Shown piece by piece: positions 4,336 to 23,206 of a stretch of DNA of 64,000 nt. The translations under genes were made by a program, and so were the position numbers. Under the pieces are notes generated by a model. It did not search any database and had not been told where the DNA came from. It saw nothing but the letters and a program-made list of their open reading frames with translations. This stretch comes from an uncultured Alphaproteobacteria bacterium (GTDB lineage: Bacteria; Pseudomonadota; Alphaproteobacteria; Methylaequorales; Methylaequoraceae), in the NCBI GenBank assembly GCA_902590895.1, contig CACIYM010000001.1:4477-68476 (forward strand), read 5' to 3'. The first letter of the stretch is position 1, and each line of letters begins with the position of its first letter.

Positions 4336-4351
4336 TGCAAGAACCTTGCCG
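4336..4351 (-). promoter_or_regulatory. sigma54-type promoter (-24/-12) for fliOPQR-flhB
   Basis: The minus strand reads CGGCAAG-GTTC-TTGCA (GG-N10-GC; GGCA and TTGCA match the consensus TGGCAC-N5-TTGCW). It lies 25 nt upstream of the ATG at 4310, with GAGG in the short leader. Confidence 0.6.
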
Positions 4352-4430
4352 TAAGATTGATCTTTAGTGTAAGTTACTGATTGTACTGATAAAATATTTA
4401 ATAAAAAAATTTGTTGTCAAATAAATGGCG

Positions 4431-7796: not shown

Positions 7797-7812
7797 TGCA
7801 AATATAGTGCCA
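7797..7812 (-). promoter_or_regulatory. sigma54 promoter (-24/-12) for fliKLMN
   Basis: The minus strand reads TGGCAC-TATAT-TTGCA, a perfect match to TGGCAC-N5-TTGCA. It lies 10 nt after the fliJ stop and 25 nt upstream of the fliK ATG (7771), with AAAGG in the leader. Confidence 0.7.
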
Positions 7813-7821
7813 CGTTAATTT

Positions 7822-8229
7822 CTAAATCATTACTTTAGTTTTAAAATTTTGATCTTTTCTCAAGTCTTTTATTTTTTCGATCATTTGGGCTTCCTCTTTT
7901 ATTTTTTTATCAATTTTTTCTTTCTGTTTTTTTATTTTGTTGATTTCACCCAAATAATCGTTCATTTCCTTTTCAAGATGAATTTCTCTATTTGTTGAAA
8001 TTTCAAGTTTTTCTTGAAGATTTTCTCTAAAAGAAGAAGTTTGTCTAAGTTGAGAACTATTTAATATTTCTCCTTCATTAAATGATGATTTTTTAAGCAT
8101 TTCCTTTAAATCTTCACTAATCCTTTCTAATTTTTTTTTTTCTAAACTAAGGGTATTTAGATTTAAAGAGAGCTTATTTTTTTTGATTTTTTTTAATAAA
8201 TTAAGTAGTTGGTATTTTTTTTTTTTCAT
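7822..8229 (-). CDS. fliJ: flagellar export chaperone/stalk protein FliJ-like
   Basis: A 135-aa, entirely coiled-coil, K/E-rich protein lying directly after fliI. Size and position are typical of FliJ. Confidence 0.6.
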   Translation of the reverse strand: MKKKKYQLLNLLKKIKKNKLSLNLNTLSLEKKKLERISEDLKEMLKKSSFNEGEILNSSQLRQTSSFRENLQEKLEISTNREIHLEKEMNDYLGEINKIKKQKEKIDKKIKEEAQMIEKIKDLRKDQNFKTKVMI

Positions 8230-8233
8230 AATG

Positions 8234-9550
8234 TTAAATGTTTTTTAATAAATCCATACTTTGGTTGAAGTCTTCTTTTTTTCTGTAATCTTGCTTGATT
8301 AACTCGCAAATTTTAGGCCATAACTCAATTGCTTTGTCAATTTCTTCATTTTGACCAGTATTGTAACCACCCATTAAAACTAGATCTTTATTTTCTTGAT
8401 ATATTGAAAAATATTTTTTTATCAGCTCAGATTTTTTTCTGTGTTCGTCAGTAATTATTGAATTCATTACTCTACTTAGAGATTGATTGATATCAATTGC
8501 TGGAAAGATACCTAGCTGTGCAAAATCTCTAGACAAAACAATATGTCCGTCAAGAATTGCTCTAGCCGTATCGACCACAGGATCGTTTGTGTCATCTGAA
8601 TCAGCTAAAATTGTATAAAAGCTTGTTATTGTTCCTTCATTTTGTGAACCTGCACCCGTTCTTTCAATTAGATTCGGTATCATTGAAATTACTGATGGAG
8701 GGTATCCTTTTGATGTTGGTTGTTCCCCTAATGCGAGACCAACTTCCCTTTTGGCATGGGCAATTCTTGTTAAAGAATCCATGATTAGCAGAACATTTTT
8801 ACCTTTTGCTCTAAAATATTCGGCAATTGATGTAGCTCTTTCTGCACCTTTAATTCTAAGTAAAGGAGATTTATCTGCCGGAACTGCGATAATTGTTGTT
8901 CTTTTTTTTGTTTCGTCATTAAGTATATCTGAAACAAAATTACCAAGCTCTCTCCCTCTTTCACCTATTAATGCTACTATCACAATGTCTGCATTTGTAA
9001 ATTTTGTCATCATTCCTAAAAGCATTGATTTACCAACTCCAGAGCCAGCTATAATTCCTAATCTTTGACCTCTACCAACAGTGAACATTGTATTAATTGC
9101 CTTTATTCCTACATCCAAAGTTTCACTTATTGGTTTACGCTTCATTGGATTAATTGGTTTACCATTCAAAGGCCAATGATCATTCAAGGAAATTTTTTTA
9201 CTTTCTTCATCAATAGGGTTTCCAAATGCATCGACTACTCTTCCCAAAATTTCATCCCCAACTTCAATGTTGGTGCTGGTATCGAGTGCCTCAATTATTG
9301 AACCAGAGATGAGATTTGCATTTTGGTTGTGAACAGCAATTAAATTTTTATTCTCTCTAAAACCAATAATTTCACCAGTTACGTTATCATCATTGTTACA
9401 ATATATTTTGCAAACAGTGCCAATTGGAGAAGGAAAGGCGTCACATTCAATAATTTTTCCATCAAATTTTGTGATTCTACTTTTGTAGGAGATATTTTTG
9501 TTAATTGAAAACTTTTCTAAATTTTCATTTATTTTTTTGGCTATAATCAT
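8234..9550 (-). CDS. fliI: flagellum-specific ATPase FliI
   Basis: 438 aa. Has Walker A GSGVGKS, Walker B LLIMDSLTR, and an F1/T3SS-ATPase-like sequence throughout. Confidence 0.95.
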   Translation of the reverse strand: MIIAKKINENLEKFSINKNISYKSRITKFDGKIIECDAFPSPIGTVCKIYCNNDDNVTGEIIGFRENKNLIAVHNQNANLISGSIIEALDTSTNIEVGDEILGRVVDAFGNPIDEESKKISLNDHWPLNGKPINPMKRKPISETLDVGIKAINTMFTVGRGQRLGIIAGSGVGKSMLLGMMTKFTNADIVIVALIGERGRELGNFVSDILNDETKKRTTIIAVPADKSPLLRIKGAERATSIAEYFRAKGKNVLLIMDSLTRIAHAKREVGLALGEQPTSKGYPPSVISMIPNLIERTGAGSQNEGTITSFYTILADSDDTNDPVVDTARAILDGHIVLSRDFAQLGIFPAIDINQSLSRVMNSIITDEHRKKSELIKKYFSIYQENKDLVLMGGYNTGQNEEIDKAIELWPKICELIKQDYRKKEDFNQSMDLLKNI

Positions 9551-10470
9551 TTTTTACTAGTATCTGACACATCATTATTTTTCAAAGTTTTATTATTATT
9601 ATTATTTTCTTGATTTTGATTTGAATTACTTTCAATATTCTTCTTAAGATCTTCTAAATCTTCATTAATATTAGATGATTGAACAAATTTAGTTTTATTA
9701 GAGAGTATATTTGCTACTTCAATAGATCCCGATTTTATTTTTAAATCACCACGTTGAAGATCATTATCAATTTCAAGTTTTTGATCAATATTTATTTTGT
9801 GGTCGGTAAGATATTTTGAAACAGATTCAAAATCTTCTTTATTAAGAAAAATTTTAACTTGCTTGAGAGAATTTTCAATTAAGTTACTTAATTCAGAAAC
9901 TTTTTCAAAAAATTTTTCTGTTTTTGTATCGATTTCATACCCTAGCATTTGTCTAGAAATTTTTTTCAAATTAGTGTTGATTTGATCATTTATCTGTCTG
10001 ATAAAATCAGGGGTCACTGTAAATATATTGTCAGCAAGATTTTTAAAGTTTACAGCAAGTGCCTGTTCACCTTTTTCAAGTTCCTCTTTGACTTTTTTTA
10101 CGCCGAGGTTGTAACCTTTATTATAATATTCTTTTGCAAGTTCGTTGGCCATTTTTTTTGCTTCTGTTTCAGTAATTTTTTTTTCTTCAATAGTTTCCTC
10201 TTTTTTTTCTTCTTCAGTTTCATCTTTCTTCACTTCTTTATCAACAATCTCAGGCTGCTCAGTTTTTTTTAAATTTTGTGAGTTTGACAAAGCCATATCC
10301 TTTGGTGTTTTTTTATTAAAAAGATACGAAACGTTTTCAGTAATTTCAGATTCTTTCTTGAAGTCTTGACTTGTTTTACTTAACAAACTTAGGATTTCTT
10401 CAGTATTTAAAGCACCAGTATTTTTTTTGTCTTGATCTTTTTTTTTTTGATTTTCTTGGATCTGCATCAT
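9547..10470 (-). CDS. fliH: flagellar assembly protein FliH-like
   Basis: Lies between fliG and fliI with 4-nt overlaps on both sides. Has a central coiled-coil segment (EAKKMANELAKEYYNKGYNLGVKKVKEELEKGEQ) typical of FliH. The N- and C-termini are low complexity. Confidence 0.65.
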   Translation of the reverse strand: MMQIQENQKKKDQDKKNTGALNTEEILSLLSKTSQDFKKESEITENVSYLFNKKTPKDMALSNSQNLKKTEQPEIVDKEVKKDETEEEKKEETIEEKKITETEAKKMANELAKEYYNKGYNLGVKKVKEELEKGEQALAVNFKNLADNIFTVTPDFIRQINDQINTNLKKISRQMLGYEIDTKTEKFFEKVSELSNLIENSLKQVKIFLNKEDFESVSKYLTDHKINIDQKLEIDNDLQRGDLKIKSGSIEVANILSNKTKFVQSSNINEDLEDLKKNIESNSNQNQENNNNNKTLKNNDVSDTSKK

Positions 10471-11516
10471 ACAAAGTCATCTCCACCTCTTCCAGCTAGA
10501 ACAATAGTTCCTTCATCTGACATTGTTCTTGCAACATTTATTACAGCTTTTTGTGCTTCTTGTACTTCTGTTAATCTTACTGGTCCAAGAACTTCCATCT
10601 CATCTTTAATATTTGCTGCAGCTCTTTGTGACATACAATTAAATATTTTTTCTTTCAGTTCATCCTCTGTCCCTTTTAGAGCAATAATTAAAATCTCTTG
10701 ATCAACATTTCTTAAAAGAGTTTGCATGCTCCTGTCATCCATTAAAATTAAAGTTTCAAATGTGAACATACTTTCTTGTATTTCTTTTGCTAGGTGTCTA
10801 TCTTTTTCACCCAAGGATTTAATAACTCTTTGTTCCATATTTTGCTTAGTGAAGTTCATTATTGAAGCTGCTGCTTTTATCCCACCGACTGAAGATGCTC
10901 TAAGAGAAGTATTAGTTTTAAATTTAAGTTGCATAACTCTTTCGAGCTCAGCTAAAGCATCAGGCTGGACTGTTTCAAGTGTTGCTATTCTGTGAATTAT
11001 GTCCGACTGAATGTCTTCTGGAAGTAAAACAAGTACATCCGCAGCTACCCCTGGTTCAAGATATGAAATAATGAGAGACATAATTTGCGGATGTTCATCC
11101 GCTATTAGTTCTGCAACTGACCTAGCATCCATCCAATCAAGAATTTCAATAGGTTTATCACTTTCAGTAGGTGTAATTCTTCCAAGAACTGACTGTGCTT
11201 TATTTTCGCCTAAAGCTTTTGTCATAACATTTTTGATATAATTAGATGAGCCCATTCCAAGATCAGTTTGCGTTTTTATTATCGCAAGAAATTCATCTAA
11301 AACTTTATTTACCGTGTCTTGATCTAACCCTTGAACATTATACATCTCTTTACCAAGCTGTTGAACTTCTTTTGGCCCAAGATTTCTTAGGATTTCCGAT
11401 GCTTCATCTTCTCCCAATAACATCATTAATATTGCGCATTTTTGTGTGCTGGTCAGTTTTTCGTAAAATGAAAGTTCTTCTTCGTTTTTATTTTCTTCTG
11501 TTTGTTTTTCGGCCAT
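10467..11516 (-). CDS. fliG: flagellar motor switch protein FliG
   Basis: 349 aa with the MFTFETL motif and a typical LTSTQKCAILMMLLGEDEASEILRNL N-terminus. The charged C-terminal torque helix region is present. Confidence 0.95.
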   Translation of the reverse strand: MAEKQTEENKNEEELSFYEKLTSTQKCAILMMLLGEDEASEILRNLGPKEVQQLGKEMYNVQGLDQDTVNKVLDEFLAIIKTQTDLGMGSSNYIKNVMTKALGENKAQSVLGRITPTESDKPIEILDWMDARSVAELIADEHPQIMSLIISYLEPGVAADVLVLLPEDIQSDIIHRIATLETVQPDALAELERVMQLKFKTNTSLRASSVGGIKAAASIMNFTKQNMEQRVIKSLGEKDRHLAKEIQESMFTFETLILMDDRSMQTLLRNVDQEILIIALKGTEDELKEKIFNCMSQRAAANIKDEMEVLGPVRLTEVQEAQKAVINVARTMSDEGTIVLAGRGGDDFV

Positions 11517-11535
11517 TTAAAATTCCTTTTTATTA

Positions 11536-13254
11536 CTATGCATCTTTTTTCATTAGTTGTCTAAATACATTTGATACCTTCCCTGCTTCATCTCCCACAA
11601 TCATTCTGATTACTGCCACTTTATCGTCATATGTGTTAGCAGTATCTAGCATTTCAGCTGAAATTGCAGTTTTCTTAGGTTTTAATTTAGCTTTTATATC
11701 CTCTATTGATTCACCTTCTTGAACCTCTACCTCGGCTTCTGCTTCTTCTGGTTCAAGATCTGCTTCAGACATTCCAGCTCCAGCACCAACTCCTGCTGAT
11801 GGCACTAAAATTCTATTTAACAATGGTTTCAAAGCCCCGAATGTAACAATTGCTAAGATAAGAACGGTAGAAATTTGACCAATAAGATTTTGAAACCATG
11901 ATTCTTCATACCATTTAGTTGATATTAAATCCATCTCTTCAATGAAATCTCCACTTGTCACAACAATGCTATCGCCTCTATCACCGTTAAATCCTACTGC
12001 CTCCTTTACAAGCGAGGAGATTTTTTCTTTATCTTCTTCACTAATTGGTTCAGAAACGATACCCTCTGGTGACTCGACAGCTTTGTTTTTTACTAAAACT
12101 GCTGTTTTTACTCTTCTAATTTTACCAATTTGACCAACAGTTGTACTAAGTTTTTTACTAACTTCATAATTCTTCACATTTGATGATGATCTTTGTTTGA
12201 ATTCTGCTGGGTCACCCTCGACTGGAGTGTCAATTTGTAAATCAGCTGCAAGAGGAGCTTGATTTGCAACTGCTCCTGGAATACCTCTTGCGGGTCTATC
12301 TGTTGACTCATCCAAACTGTTTTGTTCACTTCTTGGCGCAATGGTTTCTGGGTCGAATGTCTCCTCAGTGGTTTGGGTATTTGTAAAGTCCATTTCTACA
12401 TTTACTTCAGCGGTGATGTTTCCTGCTCCAACTATTGGTGAAACCAAAGATAAAATTCTCTCTCTGTAAAGTGACTCAATCTTAATCCTGTGATTAAGCT
12501 GTTTTTCAGTTAAAGCTATATTAGGATCGTTTTCAGGCTTTGAAAGAAGTTTACCATACTGATCAACAACAGTTACATTATCAGAAGACATATTAGGAAT
12601 AGATGATGAAACAATATGGACTATGGATCTTACCTGTTCACGATTCAGAACTCTGCCGTCAGCAAGTTTCACAAAAACTGAGGCTGTTGGAGATGCAGAG
12701 TTTCTTACAAAAACAGATCTCTCTGGTATCGCCAAGTGCACTCTTGCACCTAAAATGTAAGAGATTTCATTTATTGACCTAGCTAATTCTATTTCTTGTG
12801 TTTGTTTCATCTTCATAAATTCTACTGATCGACTTGTTCCCATAGGAATTTTCTCTAAAATGTCATATCCCTGAGGTATAGAACTTGGAAGACCTTCCGC
12901 TGCAAGTTTCATTTTTGCTTCATAATATTCTGGTGATGGGACAAGTATTTCGCCGGTAGTAGAGTCAATCGAGACATCTATTCCATTAGATCTAAGTACA
13001 TCAATAACCCTTGATTTTTCATGTTCTGGTAATGATGAAAATAGTGTTGTTCTAGATGGTTCCTTGAAAGAAAGAAATAAAATCATTCCTATAAAAATTA
13101 CAAATAAAGTTATCATTACTGGAATAGATCTTTGAACAGCCGGTTCATTTGAAAGTTTTCTTAACTTTTCAAGTGAGTTCCCAATACTCGAAACAATACC
13201 TTTGTTAGCTAATTGAGCGTTTGTAATTTCAGATGTTTGTACTTGTTCAGCCAT
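11536..13254 (-). CDS. fliF: flagellar MS-ring protein FliF
   Basis: 572 aa with an N-terminal TM, a periplasmic ring-building region and a C-terminal TM. The sequence is typical of FliF (GYDILEKIPMGTSRSVEFMKMKQTQEIELARSI). Confidence 0.95.
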   Translation of the reverse strand: MAEQVQTSEITNAQLANKGIVSSIGNSLEKLRKLSNEPAVQRSIPVMITLFVIFIGMILFLSFKEPSRTTLFSSLPEHEKSRVIDVLRSNGIDVSIDSTTGEILVPSPEYYEAKMKLAAEGLPSSIPQGYDILEKIPMGTSRSVEFMKMKQTQEIELARSINEISYILGARVHLAIPERSVFVRNSASPTASVFVKLADGRVLNREQVRSIVHIVSSSIPNMSSDNVTVVDQYGKLLSKPENDPNIALTEKQLNHRIKIESLYRERILSLVSPIVGAGNITAEVNVEMDFTNTQTTEETFDPETIAPRSEQNSLDESTDRPARGIPGAVANQAPLAADLQIDTPVEGDPAEFKQRSSSNVKNYEVSKKLSTTVGQIGKIRRVKTAVLVKNKAVESPEGIVSEPISEEDKEKISSLVKEAVGFNGDRGDSIVVTSGDFIEEMDLISTKWYEESWFQNLIGQISTVLILAIVTFGALKPLLNRILVPSAGVGAGAGMSEADLEPEEAEAEVEVQEGESIEDIKAKLKPKKTAISAEMLDTANTYDDKVAVIRMIVGDEAGKVSNVFRQLMKKDA

Positions 13255-13272
13255 TTCTTACCCCTTACTGTT

Positions 13273-13617
13273 CTAAACCGGCATATTCATTATATCTTTG
13301 TATGCAGATAAAACCTTATTTCTAATATTTAACGTCATTTGAAATCCTAAACTGGCCATTTGCTGATTTATCATTACTTTGGTTAAATCATTTTCAATTC
13401 CAAGTTCATATTTTTTTGTCAGTTCAGCACTGTGAGTTTGGTTATCTGAAACTTCAGTTATTGCATTCTTTATACTTTGTAAAAAATCAAGATCCCTATT
13501 GTTTTCAATTTTTGGTGAAAGATTTGCGACACTTTCTTGAAGGTTCTTGATTTGTTCTTGGTTGTTATTAGTCTCTACTAATTGAGGTTTAAAAACAGTT
13601 GTTAAATTTGGTTTCAT
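13273..13617 (-). CDS. fliE: flagellar hook-basal body protein FliE
   Basis: 114 aa. The C-terminus NIRNKVLSAYKDIMNMPV matches the conserved FliE end (VRNK..AYQEIM.M). Confidence 0.8.
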   Translation of the reverse strand: MKPNLTTVFKPQLVETNNNQEQIKNLQESVANLSPKIENNRDLDFLQSIKNAITEVSDNQTHSAELTKKYELGIENDLTKVMINQQMASLGFQMTLNIRNKVLSAYKDIMNMPV

Positions 13618-13635: not shown

Positions 13636-14781
13636 TTATAATGCTGCCTGCGAAATCTTTTCGTCAAAATTTTTATATAAATTGTTATTGCAACTCACAT
13701 CAACCATAATGTGACTTTCATCTATGATTTTATCATCACTTAAAACAATTGCTCTTTGCAAAACATTTTCTAGTTCTCTAACATTTCCTGGCCAACTATA
13801 ACTAGTAAGAATTTTTTTTGCTTTATCTGTTATAAAAGGAAGTTTTCCGAATTCTGTGTGTCTTTTAAGTAATGCTATACTAATAGGTATAATATCATCT
13901 GTTCTTTCAGATAAATGTAGTGTTTCAATAGGAAAAACATTTAGTCTATAGTAAAGATCCTCTCTGAATTTTTTTTCTTTGACTTCTTCAATCATGTTCC
14001 TGTTTGTTGTTGCTATCACTCTTACATCAACATCTATATCTCTTTGTCCTCCAATTGGCGTTACTTTCTTTTCTTGTAAAACCCTCAATAATTTGGCTTG
14101 AAGAGATAAAGGCATTTCTGAAATTTCGTCAAGTAATAGTGTTCCAGTATCAGCAGCTCTAAAAATACCTTTATTTGCCGACGAGGCACCTGTAAAAGCA
14201 CCTTTTTCATGTCCAAAAAGCATCGCTTCTAACATATTTTCTGGGATTGCCGCGCAATTTATTGCAACAAATGGTTTTTCAGATCTAACAGAATTTTGGT
14301 GAATATAGTTTGAAATTACCTCTTTGCCTGTCCCCGTCGGTCCATGTATAAAAACGGTAACATCTGTCTTTGCAACTTTTTCAGCCATTTTAACTAAAGA
14401 ATATGTTTTGGGATCAGAAAAACTGTATTTGTCATCAGAAAGTGACTGAAAAATGATTTCTAAAATTACGTCATTAAAATCTTTGAGTGAAATTATCACA
14501 TAAGCTCCACCTAAATCATTTTGCATTTCGTAACCTGCTTCAGATTTTTCTAAAACTAGTATATTAGTAGAACCAAAGGTTCTGGAAACTTTTAAAATCT
14601 CTGATTTTCCCCCAATTTTTTCTTGCAAATTTTTAGCGCAAATAATTGTTGATTTGTTTTTTTCAATTTTTTTAATTTCATTTAAACTTATTGTTTGTAC
14701 ATTAAGATTCTTTTTCTTTAAAAAATTTAGTACTAAATTTTTTTCTTCAAAATTTTCTTCTATAATAAATATTTCTTTCAT
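13636..14781 (-). CDS. sigma54-dependent activator with a degenerate REC-like N-domain and AAA+ core but no DNA-binding domain (FleT/FlrC-like)
   Basis: Has Walker A GPTGTGKE, the GAFTGA loop ([10 protein letters not shown]), LLLDEI and PGNVRELEN. The N-terminal ~125 aa looks REC-like but has IFIIEEN in place of the DD pocket and no acceptor Asp (STIICAKNL). The protein ends ~45 aa after the AAA+ lid with no Fis-type HTH. It is the first gene of the fliE-fliJ string (18 nt before fliE). Confidence 0.85.
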   Translation of the reverse strand: MKEIFIIEENFEEKNLVLNFLKKKNLNVQTISLNEIKKIEKNKSTIICAKNLQEKIGGKSEILKVSRTFGSTNILVLEKSEAGYEMQNDLGGAYVIISLKDFNDVILEIIFQSLSDDKYSFSDPKTYSLVKMAEKVAKTDVTVFIHGPTGTGKEVISNYIHQNSVRSEKPFVAINCAAIPENMLEAMLFGHEKGAFTGASSANKGIFRAADTGTLLLDEISEMPLSLQAKLLRVLQEKKVTPIGGQRDIDVDVRVIATTNRNMIEEVKEKKFREDLYYRLNVFPIETLHLSERTDDIIPISIALLKRHTEFGKLPFITDKAKKILTSYSWPGNVRELENVLQRAIVLSDDKIIDESHIMVDVSCNNNLYKNFDEKISQAAL

Positions 14782-14811
14782 TTGTAACCTTGATAAAGTT
14801 TCTAAGCTAAA

Positions 14812-14827
14812 AGCAAAAAACTTACCA
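14812..14827 (-). promoter_or_regulatory. sigma54-type promoter candidate for the activator-fliEFGHIJ operon
   Basis: The minus strand reads TGGTAA-GTTTT-TTGCT (GG-N10-GC; good -12, weaker -24). It lies 30 nt upstream of the ATG at 14781, with AAGG in the leader. An A19 tract starts 6 nt upstream of the -24 element. Confidence 0.4.
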
Positions 14828-14833
14828 ATTTAC

Positions 14834-14859
14834 TTTTTTTTTTTTTTTTTTTAAAAAAA
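14834..14859. repeat. T19 A7 homopolymer tract in the divergent regulator intergenic region
   Basis: Counted directly: T at 14834-14852 (19) followed by A at 14853-14859 (7). The count agrees with the FFFFFF* ending of the spurious + ORF 14654..14854. Confidence 0.9.
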
Positions 14860-14887
14860 CTGTTTAAAATCAATGACTTAAAATTTT

Positions 14888-14902
14888 TTATTATTATTAT
14901 TA
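14888..14902. repeat. (TTA)5 microsatellite
   Basis: Read directly as ttattattattatta. It lies in the same intergenic region, about 50 nt upstream of the ATG at 14953. Confidence 0.85.
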
Positions 14903-14952
14903 TTTTTTTAATATCATTATCGTCATTTTTCTGACATTATTTTAAAGTTATT

Positions 14953-16023
14953 ATGAATAACATTATTAAAGGAAACTGTGAGGCTACATCAGAGCTGAAA
15001 AAATTGGTAGAAATGGTCTCAATTTCTAATTCAACTGTATTGTTACGTGGTGAGACTGGTTGTGGAAAAGATGTTGTTGCACGAGCAATTCATCAAACTT
15101 CTAAAAGAGCAGGAGAATTGGTCAATGTAAACTGTGCAGCTATACCCTCCGAGTTATTAGAGTCAGAGCTTTTTGGTCATGAAAAAGGTGCATTTACAGG
15201 AGCAGATAACAGAAGAGAGGGAAGATTTGAGGCCTCAGACCAAGGTACACTTTTTCTTGACGAAATTGGCGATATGCCCCTTCCTCTTCAGGCAAAATTA
15301 TTAAGAGCCATTGAAACAAGAACTATACAAAGAGTAGGGGGTAAAGGTGAAATCAAACTGGATCTTAGACTTATTTGTGCAACACATCAAAATATCGAAA
15401 AGAAAATTGATGAGGGTCTCTTTAGGGCTGATTTATTTTATAGAATTAATGTGTTTCCAATTGAAATCCCCACTTTAGCTGAAAGAAAGGAAGATATTCC
15501 AATATTAGTTACGCACATTTTAAATGAAATAAGAGAAAATGGATCAAAGTCTCCTTCATTTGAGGAATCGGCTTTAACTGCCTTAAAAGAGTATGTTTGG
15601 CCTGGTAACATAAGAGAATTAAAAAATTTAATTGAAAGAGCGGCAATCATTTTTGGAGACAAAAAAATCAATGGGAAGAACATAAGAGAAAATTTACTAA
15701 AAATCAATCTTCCAGATTTCAAAGAGGAAAAGGATGTTTTATGGGATTTAACATCTGATCTTGCAGAAGTTGAAGAAAAGACAGAGCAAAATCATGACGA
15801 GAGTTCAATGCCGCATCCTAATCATTACAAAAAATGGTTTGAATATTTAGATAAAATAGATTTAAGGAGACACCTAAGCGAAATAGAGTATATTTTAATT
15901 GAAGGGGCCTTAAAAAAAAATAGTGGATCGGTAACAGCTGCTTCAAAAAGTCTTAAAATTAACAGAACCACCCTAATTGAAAAAATGAAAAAATATTCAA
16001 TTCCAAAAGCAGGAAATGATTAA
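14953..16023 (+). CDS. sigma54-dependent activator with AAA+ core plus C-terminal Fis-type HTH and no N-terminal sensor domain (FleQ/PspF-like architecture)
   Basis: Starts directly in the AAA+ module (GETGCGKD at aa 33-40). Has [25 protein letters not shown] and a C-terminal HTH ([24 protein letters not shown]). An in-frame TGA at 14932-14934 excludes an N-terminal extension. Confidence 0.9.
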
Positions 16024-20336: not shown

Positions 20337-21656
20337 ATGACTAACAATATCATTATATTGGGCAAACCTAACGCTGGAAAATCTTCCTTATTTAACGCAC
20401 TACTAGGAAAGCAAATAGCTGTAGTTAATGATTTTGAGGGGCTTACTAGGGATTTAAAAGAAATTGAAATAAATATTAATGAGAAAGTTTGTAGTGTCAT
20501 TGATTCACCCGGAATAACAGGTGGTAAAAGTTTAATTGAAAAGGAAATAAAAAAAAAAACAATCTTATCAATAGAGAAATGTGATTTAATATTTTTAGTC
20601 ATTGATGGAAAAAAAAATTTGACTAGTGAGGACTTTGAGATTTTTAATATAGTAAGAAAATCCCAAAAAAAAACTTTATTAATAATAAACAAAACTGAAG
20701 GACAAATAAATGAAGCTTTAATTGATGAGTGCAATAATTTAGGTTTTGGTTTACCTATAAAAATTTCTACAGCACATATGCAAGGAATTGATCATCTAAA
20801 ATATTTAGTCACAGAAATTTTTCATAATGAAACTTATGGAAAACCTCCTAATGAGGTTAAAGAATTGTCTATTGCAATTGTAGGTAAAACAAACTCCGGT
20901 AAATCAACACTGTTAAACACTCTTAAGGGTGAAAATTTATCAATTACAGGTGATTTACCTCATTTGACTAGGGATGCAGTTGAAACAACAATTAAAAATA
21001 ACTTATTTGAATCAAAGATAATCGATACTGCTGGCTTTAGTAAATCTAAAAGTGATGAAGATAAGATTAATTACTTATTTACTGATCAAACAAAAAAAAA
21101 GATCAGGTTATCTAAAATTATAATCATTCTAATGGATATTGATGACTATTTTGAAAGAATTCATTCAAAAATTTTAAAATTCGTTTATGAAGAGAATAGG
21201 TGTATGATTCTGGCAGTAAATAAAATTGATGAAAAAAAAAAAATTCTAGAAAATGAAATAAAAAAAAAAATATATAACTTAACACCACAAATTAGAGGTT
21301 TGCCAGTTTATTTTATCTCGGCAAAGGAAAATATTGGTCTTAAAGAAATGATTCATGGTATAAAAAAACAGTATGATATATGGAATAAAAGAATTTCAAC
21401 TGGAAGATTAAATTCTTGGTTACAAGACATAACAAAAAAAAATCCACCGCCTCTTCATAATAAAAAGATAGTAAAGTTTAAATACATTGTACAAGTTTCG
21501 ACAAGTCCTCCAAAGTTCAATGTTTTTTTGAATTTAAATGATGTTTTAAAAAACCCATATAAAAGATTTATAGAAAATAAACTTAAAACGCATTTTGAAA
21601 TGAATGGTCTTCCGCTTAAGATAATATATAAGAAAACAGCAAATCCCTATGAATAA
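20337..21656 (+). CDS. der: ribosome-associated GTPase Der/EngA
   Basis: Has two tandem GTPase domains (GKPNAGKSSLFN, DSPG; GKTNSGKSTLLN, DTAG, NKID) plus a KH-like C-terminus. Confidence 0.95.
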   Translation: MTNNIIILGKPNAGKSSLFNALLGKQIAVVNDFEGLTRDLKEIEININEKVCSVIDSPGITGGKSLIEKEIKKKTILSIEKCDLIFLVIDGKKNLTSEDFEIFNIVRKSQKKTLLIINKTEGQINEALIDECNNLGFGLPIKISTAHMQGIDHLKYLVTEIFHNETYGKPPNEVKELSIAIVGKTNSGKSTLLNTLKGENLSITGDLPHLTRDAVETTIKNNLFESKIIDTAGFSKSKSDEDKINYLFTDQTKKKIRLSKIIIILMDIDDYFERIHSKILKFVYEENRCMILAVNKIDEKKKILENEIKKKIYNLTPQIRGLPVYFISAKENIGLKEMIHGIKKQYDIWNKRISTGRLNSWLQDITKKNPPPLHNKKIVKFKYIVQVSTSPPKFNVFLNLNDVLKNPYKRFIENKLKTHFEMNGLPLKIIYKKTANPYE

Positions 21657-21933
21657 AAATTTATTATTCCTAACCCTTTTAATTTTTTTTAGAATATCTG
21701 ATGCTAATGATATAAAAACATTTACAATTATACAAAATTGTAATGTTTGTCATACTGAAAAATATAAAAAATCAAGTAGTATTAAATCACTAAAAACACT
21801 TGAAAAAGAATATTTTTTAACAAAAATGTATGAGTATAAAAAAGAAAATAAAAACGGTGTTATGAACAGAATTTTAGATCCAATTAATGTCTTAGATATA
21901 ATTGAAATGGCTGATTATCTTTATGGAGAATAA
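21649..21933 (+). CDS. monohaem c-type cytochrome (flavocytochrome c cytochrome subunit-like)
   Basis: Has a signal peptide (MNKNLLFLTLLIFFRISDA), a single CxxCH motif (CNVCH) and a distal Met candidate (GVMNRI). It overlaps the following flavoprotein gene by 11 nt. Confidence 0.7.
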   Translation: MNKNLLFLTLLIFFRISDANDIKTFTIIQNCNVCHTEKYKKSSSIKSLKTLEKEYFLTKMYEYKKENKNGVMNRILDPINVLDIIEMADYLYGE

Positions 21934-23206
21934 TATAAATACAAGAAGAGTGTTCCTTAATAATATAAAAAATTTTTTTTTATATAGTTTTCTAAGCCAA
22001 TTTTTTTTTGTTAAAAACCTAAAAGCAAAAAATGTCAAACCCAAAGTAGTAGTAGTAGGTTCAGGTTTTGGTGGCGGAACCTGTATAAAATATTTGTCTA
22101 AATATTCTAAAATTTTGGATTTACAAGTAATTGATAAATACACTCAAATTCAAACATGTCCTTTTTCAAACCTTGTTATAGGTAATGTTATGGATTACAA
22201 AGACATCACCTTTGACATAAATAAAAATTTAGAAGCAAAGTTTCACACTGGACAAATAAAATATATTAATCCAGAAAAAAAACAAATCTACTTTTCTGAC
22301 GATTTATCGATGAATTATGATTTCTTGATATTATCACCAGGCATTGGTTTTAAGAAAAATCAAATTGATGGGTATTCAATAGAGGATGAAAGTTTTGTTC
22401 CGCATTGTTGGACAGGAAATAAAAAAATTTTAGAATTCAAAAAAAGACTAAATAGCTTAGATGATGGATGTAGTTTAGTTATTTCTGCTCCAGAGTATCC
22501 GTATAGATGTCCCCCAGCGCCATATGAAAGGGCTTCAATGATTGCTAACTACCTAATGAAAAAAAAAAAACAATTTAAAATTTTCATTTTAGACTCCAAA
22601 AATTCTTTTACAAAAAAAGAAATATTTTTTAATGAATGGAAAAAAAAATATAATGATTCAATTGAATGGATTAGTAAAAAAGATGGTGGAAAAATTATAA
22701 ATGTAAATGACGGAGTTGTTACCACTGAAGGTGGACTAAAATTTTCATCTGATTTTTTGCATATAATTCCGAATCAGCAGGCCTCTGAAATATTCCATAA
22801 TTCTGGTTTAACTTCTGATGACTGGTGTTCGATTAATCCGATAAATTTTGAAGTAACCGGATCCAAAGATATTTATGCTCTTGGAGATTCAATAGACGCC
22901 GGTGATATGCCAAAATCAAGCTTTTCTGCTAATAGCCAAGCAAAGATGTTATCAATGAATTTAGTAAATAAGATTTTGGAGAAAGATTATGTTGAACCTG
23001 TTTTTTTAAATACATGTTACAGTTTCTCTTCAAATGATAGAGCCTTTTCTATCACTTCATGGTATAGGTTAAATAGTCAAAAAAATAGGATTGTTTCTCT
23101 TGGCAGCAAAGAAAGTAATGTTGATGCAAGTGATCTCGATAGATTAAGAGAATCAAAAGAAGCACATGATTGGTATGAAAATATTACACAAATGATTTAC
23201 AGTTAA
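21923..23206 (+). CDS. fccB: flavocytochrome c sulfide dehydrogenase flavoprotein subunit-like FAD oxidoreductase, Tat-exported
   Basis: Has a twin-arginine signal (NTRRVFLNNIKNFF...NLKA) and an FAD fold (VVVVGSGFGGGT). Its ~430-aa length is typical of FccB/SoxF, and it is coupled to the upstream cytochrome c gene. I prefer the start at Met8 (ATG 21923); the track start is 21902. Confidence 0.7.
   Translation: MENNINTRRVFLNNIKNFFLYSFLSQFFFVKNLKAKNVKPKVVVVGSGFGGGTCIKYLSKYSKILDLQVIDKYTQIQTCPFSNLVIGNVMDYKDITFDINKNLEAKFHTGQIKYINPEKKQIYFSDDLSMNYDFLILSPGIGFKKNQIDGYSIEDESFVPHCWTGNKKILEFKKRLNSLDDGCSLVISAPEYPYRCPPAPYERASMIANYLMKKKKQFKIFILDSKNSFTKKEIFFNEWKKKYNDSIEWISKKDGGKIINVNDGVVTTEGGLKFSSDFLHIIPNQQASEIFHNSGLTSDDWCSINPINFEVTGSKDIYALGDSIDAGDMPKSSFSANSQAKMLSMNLVNKILEKDYVEPVFLNTCYSFSSNDRAFSITSWYRLNSQKNRIVSLGSKESNVDASDLDRLRESKEAHDWYENITQMIYS

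Follow-up and report, generated by a model that had tools for sequence, protein, structure and literature searches.

How is flagellar gene expression ordered in a bacterium whose flagellar cluster opens with two divergent sigma54-dependent activators, one devoid of a DNA-binding domain and the other devoid of an N-terminal domain, with no sensor kinase beside them? This question is raised by a 64-kb stretch of DNA from an uncultured marine alphaproteobacterium (~29% GC; the whole stretch analysed is called the window below), in which the gene for a 381-amino acid (aa) protein (13636..14781, minus strand) stands back to back with the gene for a 356-aa protein (14953..16023, plus strand). Pfam searches indicated that the 381-aa protein is a FleT-type activator made of a pseudo-receiver, an AAA+ module and its lid, encoded by the first gene of the fliE operon, and that the 356-aa protein is a FleQ-type activator made of an AAA+ module, a lid and a Fis-type helix-turn-helix (HTH). 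These architectures, together with the gene order, confirmed the original prediction of a kinase-less activator pair at the head of the fliE operon. Our analysis indicates that the locus is probably an orthologue of the Fla1 FleQ/FleT module of Cereibacter (Rhodobacter) sphaeroides, a known system in a new and ecologically abundant host.

In C. sphaeroides, FleQ and RpoN2 activate the fleT-fliEFGHIJ operon, and FleQ alone activates PfleT (PMC7277832, PMC11999139, PMC10084136). FleT, which has no DNA-binding domain, shows no activity by itself, and class III promoters are activated by hetero-oligomers of FleQ and FleT (PMC11999139, PMC7277832, PMC10084136). A search seeded with a Rhodobacterales homologue recovered from C. 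sphaeroides WS8N a protein of 378 aa, N-domain included (P0294). Its gene lies directly upstream of fliE-F-G-H-I-J-K-L-M-N (L082), in the order found in the window, and is therefore fleT. P0294 and the 381-aa protein are 50% identical over residues 44-361 (E 1e-120), and the N-domain features F11, R67 and ELGG are common to both. In both organisms, an HTH-less AAA+ activator comes first in the fliEFGHIJ operon behind a sigma54 promoter, its partner consists of an AAA+ module and an HTH without N-terminal regulatory domain, and no kinase accompanies the pair. No histidine kinase was found among the open reading frames (ORFs) of at least 110 aa scanned across the window, as predicted for the immediate surroundings of the pair. 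Within 10 kb of C. sphaeroides fleT, the only kinase was of the CheA type (HATPase_c and CheW), encoded in the upstream che operon, and no FleS/FlrB-like sensor kinase was seen. The promoter architecture is also similar, with a FleQ-box-like site 109 bp upstream of the -24 element in C. sphaeroides and 108-111 bp upstream of it in the window and its relatives. The two loci differ in their layout: the che operon occupies the region upstream of fleT in C. sphaeroides, where fleQ is more than 10 kb away, whereas the FleQ-type gene of the window is adjacent and divergent. They also differ in their host, which for the window is an uncultured marine alphaproteobacterial lineage with a GC content of 29%. 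The C. sphaeroides pair, proposed earlier as the appropriate comparison, is the right one. The accompanying claim that the window goes further than the described cases did not stand. WS8N FleT has the same N-domain and C. sphaeroides FleQ is also described as lacking an N-terminal regulatory domain (PMC9542535), so that the window and the described system have equal architectures; the divergent layout is likewise found in HTCC2083, Thalassobacter and Planktotalea.

The sigma54 promoter of C. sphaeroides fleT, TGGCACGATCCCTGC, precedes the long ORF by about 40-55 nt (55 nt when its start is measured against the start codon), and the Cereibacter N-domain has a ratio of non-synonymous to synonymous substitution rates (dN/dS) of 0.17, a value that makes the long, 378-aa FleT the parsimonious product. 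A short, 259-aa AAA-only FleT seen in C. johrii (L046, 1-861) was rejected as a contig-end artefact, the frame being open and homologous upstream of the internal ATG. The idea that Cereibacter FleT lacks the N-domain was withdrawn once the start of this contig had been translated. This case illustrates how an ORF close to the end of a contig can look like a truncated protein.

The 381-aa protein has a complete sigma54-interaction AAA+ core (13924..14415, minus strand; Pfam PF00158, Sigma54_activat, residues 123-286, E 4e-70), in which the Walker A motif GPTGTGKE, the GAFTGA loop, the Walker B motif LLLDEI and the arginine fingers are intact; AAA_lid_14 follows at residues 292-362. No HTH_8, Response_reg or FleQ-domain match was found in this protein at E<=1, and residues 1-120 remained unmatched. 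A complete sigma54 AAA+ protein without Fis-type HTH, as originally predicted, is therefore what the locus encodes. Every motif that the prediction quoted was found in the sequence. The predicted stop ~45 aa after the lid was accurate when counted from the PGNVRELEN motif (42 aa) and inaccurate when counted from the end of the Pfam lid match (19 aa). The C-terminal tail (residues 363-381; 13639..13695, minus strand) ends in SQAAL where an HTH would stand, and was modelled by AlphaFold2 with low confidence (predicted local distance difference test, pLDDT, <50 at residues 364-372 and 378-381).

A short, non-polar, Ala-rich C-terminal tail was also observed in almost all HTH-less FleT-type proteins (FleT-like ORFs in loci L001-L048). 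Besides SQAAL in the window, examples include KQAVI and KLMQA in its relatives, AAQAA and AARAA in Rhodobacterales and LHLAAV in C. sphaeroides FleT. Judged by their sequences, these tails resemble ssrA-like C-terminal ClpXP degrons, and FleT could be a timed, unstable subunit.

Comparison with solved structures placed the 381-aa protein closest to Vibrio cholerae FlrC, its best sequence match in the PDB (275 bits), ahead of FlrA (230 bits) and FleQ (215 bits). The final AlphaFold2 model, built on a 71-sequence alignment, had a mean pLDDT of 85, and its top Foldseek match was the FlrC AAA+ domain (TM-score 0.94, root-mean-square deviation 1.3-1.7 Å, 55% identity). An earlier run on a shallow alignment had modelled the N-domain well and the AAA+ module poorly (pLDDT 55). 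No NCBIfam equivalog model (NifA, FlbD, FlgR and others) reached its cut-off for either activator; FlgR and FlbD scored 271 and 302 bits, respectively, against a cut-off of 750 for both. Sequence and fold therefore assign the 381-aa protein to the FlrC/FleR lineage, with a degenerate receiver and with loss of the kinase and of the HTH. Gene order is informative in the same context. Gammaproteobacterial loci (Photobacterium and others) have flrA, a gap of ~1.8 kb corresponding to flrB, flrC and then fliF, an order which identifies the slot directly upstream of fliE as the FleR/FlrC slot; no such gap exists in the clade of the window. The FleQ/FleT module is a kinase-less reduction of the gammaproteobacterial FleQ - FleS/FleR (FlrA - FlrB/FlrC) cascade.

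Other rearrangements of these lineages were noted. In five loci from Steroidobacteraceae and other gammaproteobacterial metagenome-assembled genomes (L067, L070, L075, L078, L079), a FleQ-type gene is followed by a FleR-type gene that has lost the receiver and kept the HTH (322-362 aa), with no space for a kinase between the two. This arrangement represents another, different way in which the FleQ-FleSR cascade has been reduced to a kinase-less form. A 717-aa protein (P0121) joins a FleQ-type N-domain and an AAA+ module with intact GAFTGA and no HTH to a second AAA+ module with degenerate GAFTGA and an FlrC-type HTH. Either FleQ and FleR are naturally fused in this protein, which would be a hint that both lineages associate physically, or the protein is an artefact of gene calling or a frameshift. 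Further tandem double-AAA+ activators are P0123, P0125, P0127 and P0130.

The unmatched N-terminal region of the 381-aa protein (residues 1-118; 14428..14781, minus strand) was analysed by alignment, profile search and modelling, which together describe a pseudo-receiver with a receiver (REC)-like alpha/beta fold, without phospho-acceptor Asp and with an acidic pocket that is not conserved. Full-length phmmer alignments extended into REC-bearing FlrC-like proteins from residue 2 onwards, pairing VVEDD of these proteins with IIEEN, and their acceptor stretch VSDVNM with CAKNL. A profile was built from 21 N-domains belonging to two orders. Its acceptor column contains A in the window protein and S, A, C or G across the family, never a conserved Asp; the window protein has E8-E9 at the position of the acidic pocket, a pair that is not conserved even inside its own clade. 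The degenerate REC-like domain anticipated by the original prediction is therefore a feature of the family. None of the 21 members matched Pfam Response_reg or the FleQ domain at E<=10. Searched against the PDB, the profile gave receivers as its seven best matches, namely six PmrA entries (E 0.017-0.065), whose alignments begin at the first residue, and one 135-aa transcriptional regulator (E 0.38). The N-domain alignment, used as a profile query, yielded no more than 22 short fragments and gives no family census. In the AlphaFold2 model, the N-domain folds as beta-alpha-beta-alpha-beta-alpha-beta-(beta)-beta-alpha with per-block pLDDT values of 84-92 and a strand in place of the usual helix 4. 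The REC and AAA+ structures of NtrC1, NtrC4 and LuxO aligned with the 381-aa model in Foldseek over ~390 columns covering both domains, and the PmrA receiver matched the N-domain of the first, shallow-alignment model with a TM-score of 0.64.

The conserved positions of the N-domain (F11, R67 and the ELGG motif, G91-G92) have no part in phosphorylation chemistry, and dN/dS is 0.03-0.38 in this domain and 0.03-0.06 in the AAA+ module. Alignments and models thus portray a dead, receiver-like domain that is conserved in the FleT family, C. sphaeroides FleT included. According to reviews, FleT has neither a regulatory nor a DNA-binding domain (PMC7175178, PMC3162934, PMC10084136), a lack for which it is called unique among bacterial enhancer-binding proteins, and FleQ and FleT have both been described as lacking an N-terminal regulatory domain (PMC9542535). 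Unlike these descriptions, the 378-aa annotation of C. sphaeroides FleT contains the pseudo-receiver, as does the family of the window. This overlooked domain, present across FleT-type proteins and in the studied one, is the sole mildly new point of our analysis. We tentatively propose that the FleT family carries a ~120-aa pseudo-receiver, derived from the FleR/FlrC receiver and held under purifying selection, which might act as the functional handle of the system. Three roles are possible: the domain may prevent FleT from forming homo-hexamers and so leave mixed FleQ/FleT rings as the only assembly, it may dock a flagellar-assembly checkpoint protein, or it may, together with the Ala-rich tail, time FleT turnover.

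The 356-aa protein consists of Sigma54_activat (residues 6-171), the lid (177-250) and HTH_8 (308-348; 15874..15996, plus strand; Pfam PF02954, E 1.2e-9, with alignment to 8p53_C), in agreement with the Fis-type HTH originally predicted at its end. It has no FleQ N-domain: the protein begins at position 2 of the Sigma54_activat profile (profile positions 2-168 are covered), and the in-frame TGA at 14932-14934 that was said to forbid an N-terminal extension is present, 18 nt upstream of the ATG. Its best PDB match was P. aeruginosa FleQ (residues 149-486, 286 bits, HTH included), followed by FlrA (261 bits) and FlrC (209 bits). The HTH is almost identical to that of FleQ, in which the corresponding stretch is IRRTTLVEKMRKY. 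By sequence, the 356-aa protein is assigned to the FleQ lineage, minus the FleQ N-domain, and this N-less, full-length form is kept in the relatives and in HTCC2083. We also observed that, relative to P. aeruginosa FleQ, the protein begins after the LFRS motif and has ARAIH in place of ARNLH (14953-14970 and 15040-15070). We take the LFRS and ARNLH positions to be contact sites for cyclic di-GMP in the FleQ structure, and control by this nucleotide may be absent in the 356-aa protein.

Both proteins are conserved in related genomes. Among the matches listed, 120 close homologues of the 381-aa protein (88-100% identity) all cover 100% of the query, and 119 of them have a length of exactly 381 aa. 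Their source is marine metagenomes (ENA, Tara, JGI), and the contigs that carry some of them reach 479 kb. With one genome counted per species, the protein was found in single-amplified and metagenome-assembled genomes of uncultured marine Alphaproteobacteria, of which AG-901-J22 is 98% identical and others are labelled Pelagibacteraceae TMED13 or Rickettsiales. In 20 species-level genomes, searches with tblastn detected both proteins at full length, down to 59% identity, with their genes divergent and fliE-fliF next in line. The divergent pair was also present, together with fliE-fliF, in four Rhodobacteraceae loci (L038, L039 (Thalassobacter), L040 (HTCC2083) and L043 (Planktotalea)), which include cultured Roseobacter-group bacteria and one uncultured Rhodobacteraceae genome, the FleQ-type gene being N-less. 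Outside its own clade, the 381-aa protein is closest to genomic homologues from Rhodobacterales, which are 373-395 aa in length, share its N-domain and are each encoded directly upstream of fliE-fliF.

The 171-bp region between the two genes was aligned across 13 species. This AT-rich region is 63% identical overall, and a palindrome and a sigma54 promoter are its only invariant blocks. The palindrome, TGTCAGAAAAATGACA (14921..14936, unstranded), is a candidate FleQ box (enhancer) located 17-32 nt upstream of the ATG of the 356-aa gene and 108 bp upstream of the sigma54 -24 element, and its variation is limited to one to three central spacer bases. No other exact GTCA-N6-TGAC occurs in the flagellar part of the window, and the palindrome fits the proposed P. 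aeruginosa FleQ consensus GTCaNTAAAtTGAC (taken from PMC6120874) at 12 of the 13 specified positions. The -24/-12 promoter of the fleT-like/fliEFGHIJ operon, TGGTAAGTTTTTTGCT (14812..14827, minus strand; pattern search and alignment), ends 31 nt before the ATG and reads TTGG(T/C)AA..TT(T/C)TTGCTT in all 13 species. Palindrome and promoter were found together in 21 of 22 related loci, spaced 108-111 bp apart. A/T tracts occupy the spacer in all relatives; in the window, the tract is a T19A7 homopolymer (14834..14859, unstranded), and the distance from box to promoter differs by 2 nt from that in the 98%-identical genome L001. The T19A7 tract may provide an intrinsic bend standing in for integration host factor, or it may be a slippage-prone tract. 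Upstream of C. sphaeroides fleT, GTCAATATCCCGAC lies 109 bp before TGGCACGATCCCTGC; similar boxes occur at 83-311 bp in other Rhodobacterales, in which equivalents of the sigma54 promoter also precede fleT. The position of the palindrome 17 nt upstream of the ATG makes autoregulation of the 356-aa gene possible.

A perfect sigma54 promoter, TGGCACTATATTTGCA (7797..7812, minus strand; pattern search), stands in front of fliK as a candidate class III promoter and is invariant in 12 species as TGGCA(C/T)-N5-TTGCA. Between fliN and fliO (4336..4429, minus strand), a weaker sigma54-like element, CGGCAAGGTTCTTGCA (4351->4336), accompanies a degenerate FleQ-box-like site, GTCAAATAAATGGC (4416-4429); at the equivalent site, several relatives have an exact box and TGGCA.G...CTTGC.

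By analogy with experiments in C. sphaeroides and with P. aeruginosa FleQ, we propose that these elements would serve a two-step cascade of the FleQ/FleT type, which we regard as the likely mode of action. The 356-aa FleQ-type protein would bind TGTCAGAAAAATGACA in the divergent intergenic region and, from ~108 bp across the A/T-tract spacer, activate RNA polymerase-sigma54 at TGGTAAGTTTTTTGCT, so that the 381-aa gene and fliEFGHIJ would be transcribed. The 381-aa FleT-type protein, presumably unable to bind DNA or to be phosphorylated, would then join the FleQ-type protein in mixed AAA+ rings, and these would redirect activation to later sigma54 promoters such as that of fliK. The pseudo-receiver, as a conserved and constrained remnant of the FleR/FlrC receiver, may control oligomerisation or the choice of partner.

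Several results weigh against this cascade or against orthology with C. sphaeroides. No rpoN was found among the ORFs of at least 110 aa scanned in the window, and the conserved -24/-12 promoters would imply that it exists in the genome. The orthology of the 356-aa protein to C. sphaeroides FleQ rests on architecture, as described in the literature, and on Rhodobacteraceae homologues with 42-48% identity. One-mismatch versions of GTCA-N6-TGAC show no enrichment in the window (15 sites found, 12 expected); because the one-mismatch motif occurs at chance frequency, the case for the candidate FleQ box rests on its conservation and position and not on enrichment. Chromatin immunoprecipitation sequencing in P. 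fluorescens recovered no FleQ consensus (PMC6120874). Finally, no FleQ box or conserved enhancer was seen near the fliK promoter, where only a codon pattern is conserved inside fliJ; an invariant promoter without a box fits a class III promoter that would be served by the mixed complex.

The last of these results also speaks for a rival view, in which the two proteins are independent activators acting in sequence without a mixed ring. The FleQ-type protein would switch on fleT-fliE, and the 381-aa protein would then act alone from solution, like Helicobacter FlgR or Chlamydia CtcC, with no control on its activity other than its concentration or a partner that binds the pseudo-receiver. The completeness of its AAA+ module, from GAFTGA loop to arginine fingers, and the existence of HTH-less REC-AAA+ activators (PMC3162934) are compatible with this scheme. 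We nevertheless consider it unlikely, since the 381-aa protein has neither the functional receiver nor the cognate kinase that FlgR and CtcC possess. Much less probable still is that the 381-aa protein remains under phosphorylation control, through an orphan FleS/FlrB-like kinase encoded elsewhere and a non-canonical acceptor. Such control would agree with its FlrC/FleR lineage, with the JGI pipeline name 'two-component system response regulator FlrC' and with E8-E9 at the acidic-pocket position, and the kinase search covered the 64-kb window and not the rest of the genome. It is at odds, however, with the end of strand 3, which lacks Asp in every family member, with the lack of conservation of E8-E9 within the clade and with the failure of all 21 members to match Response_reg. 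The kinase census points the same way: none is encoded in the window, only a CheA-type enzyme near C. sphaeroides fleT, and none at the flrB position in the family across two orders.

There remains the view that the truncations are artefacts or signs of decay, due to frameshifts, to miscalled start or stop codons or, in a reduced genome, to pseudogene formation. An AT-rich genome with long homopolymer tracts could give rise to such errors, and split matches were seen at one related locus (L026). The probability of this is negligible, given that the 381- and 356-aa lengths and the domain sets are kept in hundreds of metagenomic copies and 20 species-level genomes, and that the lengths and the divergent layout recur in more than 20 related genomes. 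The low dN/dS values of both domains, the 171 bp between the genes being filled by conserved regulatory elements and the in-frame stop upstream of the 356-aa ATG likewise speak against it, and we consider the artefact view effectively refuted.

The FleQ/FleT-type cascade can also be compared with other known systems. In Pseudomonas (FleQ - FleS/FleR) and Vibrio (FlrA - FlrB/FlrC), two sigma54 activators are similarly encoded directly upstream of fliE-fliF, FlrC and FleQ are the closest solved AAA+ relatives of the 381-aa and 356-aa proteins, respectively, and the palindrome resembles the FleQ box. In contrast to these cascades, the window has no adjacent FleS/FlrB kinase and its two genes are divergent rather than co-directional; its 381-aa protein lacks the acceptor Asp and the HTH of FleR/FlrC, and its 356-aa protein lacks the N-domain of FleQ/FlrA. 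H. pylori FlgR, also a flagellar regulator, and Chlamydia CtcC have the same order of a receiver fold and a sigma54 AAA+ module without HTH, but their receivers are phosphorylated by FlgS and CtcB and they act alone from solution, whereas the receiver of the window is dead and no kinase lies in the window. P. syringae HrpR/HrpS are two paralogous sigma54 activators that form a hetero-hexamer without sensory domains (PMC10084136, PMC9542535). Unlike the pair in the window, which comes from distinct FleQ and FleR lineages, HrpR and HrpS are tandem paralogues, both with an HTH, and control type III secretion. Another alphaproteobacterial case is that of Caulobacter FlbD, a flagellar sigma54 activator that works with FliX and has an atypical receiver and no known kinase. 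FlbD differs from the 381-aa protein by its HTH and by its place in the alpha-type flagellar system.

On the minus strand, the 381-aa gene is followed by fliE, fliF, fliG, fliH, fliI, a 135-aa ORF at the fliJ position, fliK, fliL, fliM, fliN, fliO, fliP, (fliQ), fliR and flhB. The genes from fliE to the 135-aa ORF (7822..13617, minus strand; Pfam FliE, YscJ_FliF and FliH) lie close behind the 381-aa gene in the same orientation, and the whole forms an operon-like run on one strand, in which the gaps that were checked measure 18-20 nt. The genes fliG, fliI and fliJ were assigned from ORF translations and gene order; the 135-aa ORF has no Pfam match and was assigned by position only. At the left end of the window (minus strand, 594-800), a sigma54-like element, TGGCACAAATTGTGCA (664->649), lies at the 3' end of a small Cys-rich ORF (MNRDYCNNCQHF...) and just ahead of a coiled-coil/transmembrane ORF (ATG at 594) that runs off the window. 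By its sequence, this element may be a further promoter of the flagellar regulon. The other ~48 kb of the window contain housekeeping genes. At 21649-23206, a small cytochrome-c-like ORF precedes the gene for a flavocytochrome c sulfide dehydrogenase flavoprotein (FCSD_central, FCSD-flav_bind); these sulfide-dehydrogenase genes thus sit in a flagellated, 29% GC marine alphaproteobacterium with relatives labelled Pelagibacteraceae or Rickettsiales.

The intergenic region has a compact, footprinted layout that is directly testable, in which ~108-111 bp of A/T-tract spacer separate a FleQ-box-like palindrome from a sigma54 promoter. The cryptic receiver-fold N-domain in FleT corrects the literature and bears on models of how mixed AAA+ rings assemble. 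Above all, the FleQ/FleT module, known from one model organism, is extended to an abundant, streamlined marine alphaproteobacterial lineage and to many Rhodobacterales, a distribution which indicates that the module is a widespread solution and not an oddity of C. sphaeroides.

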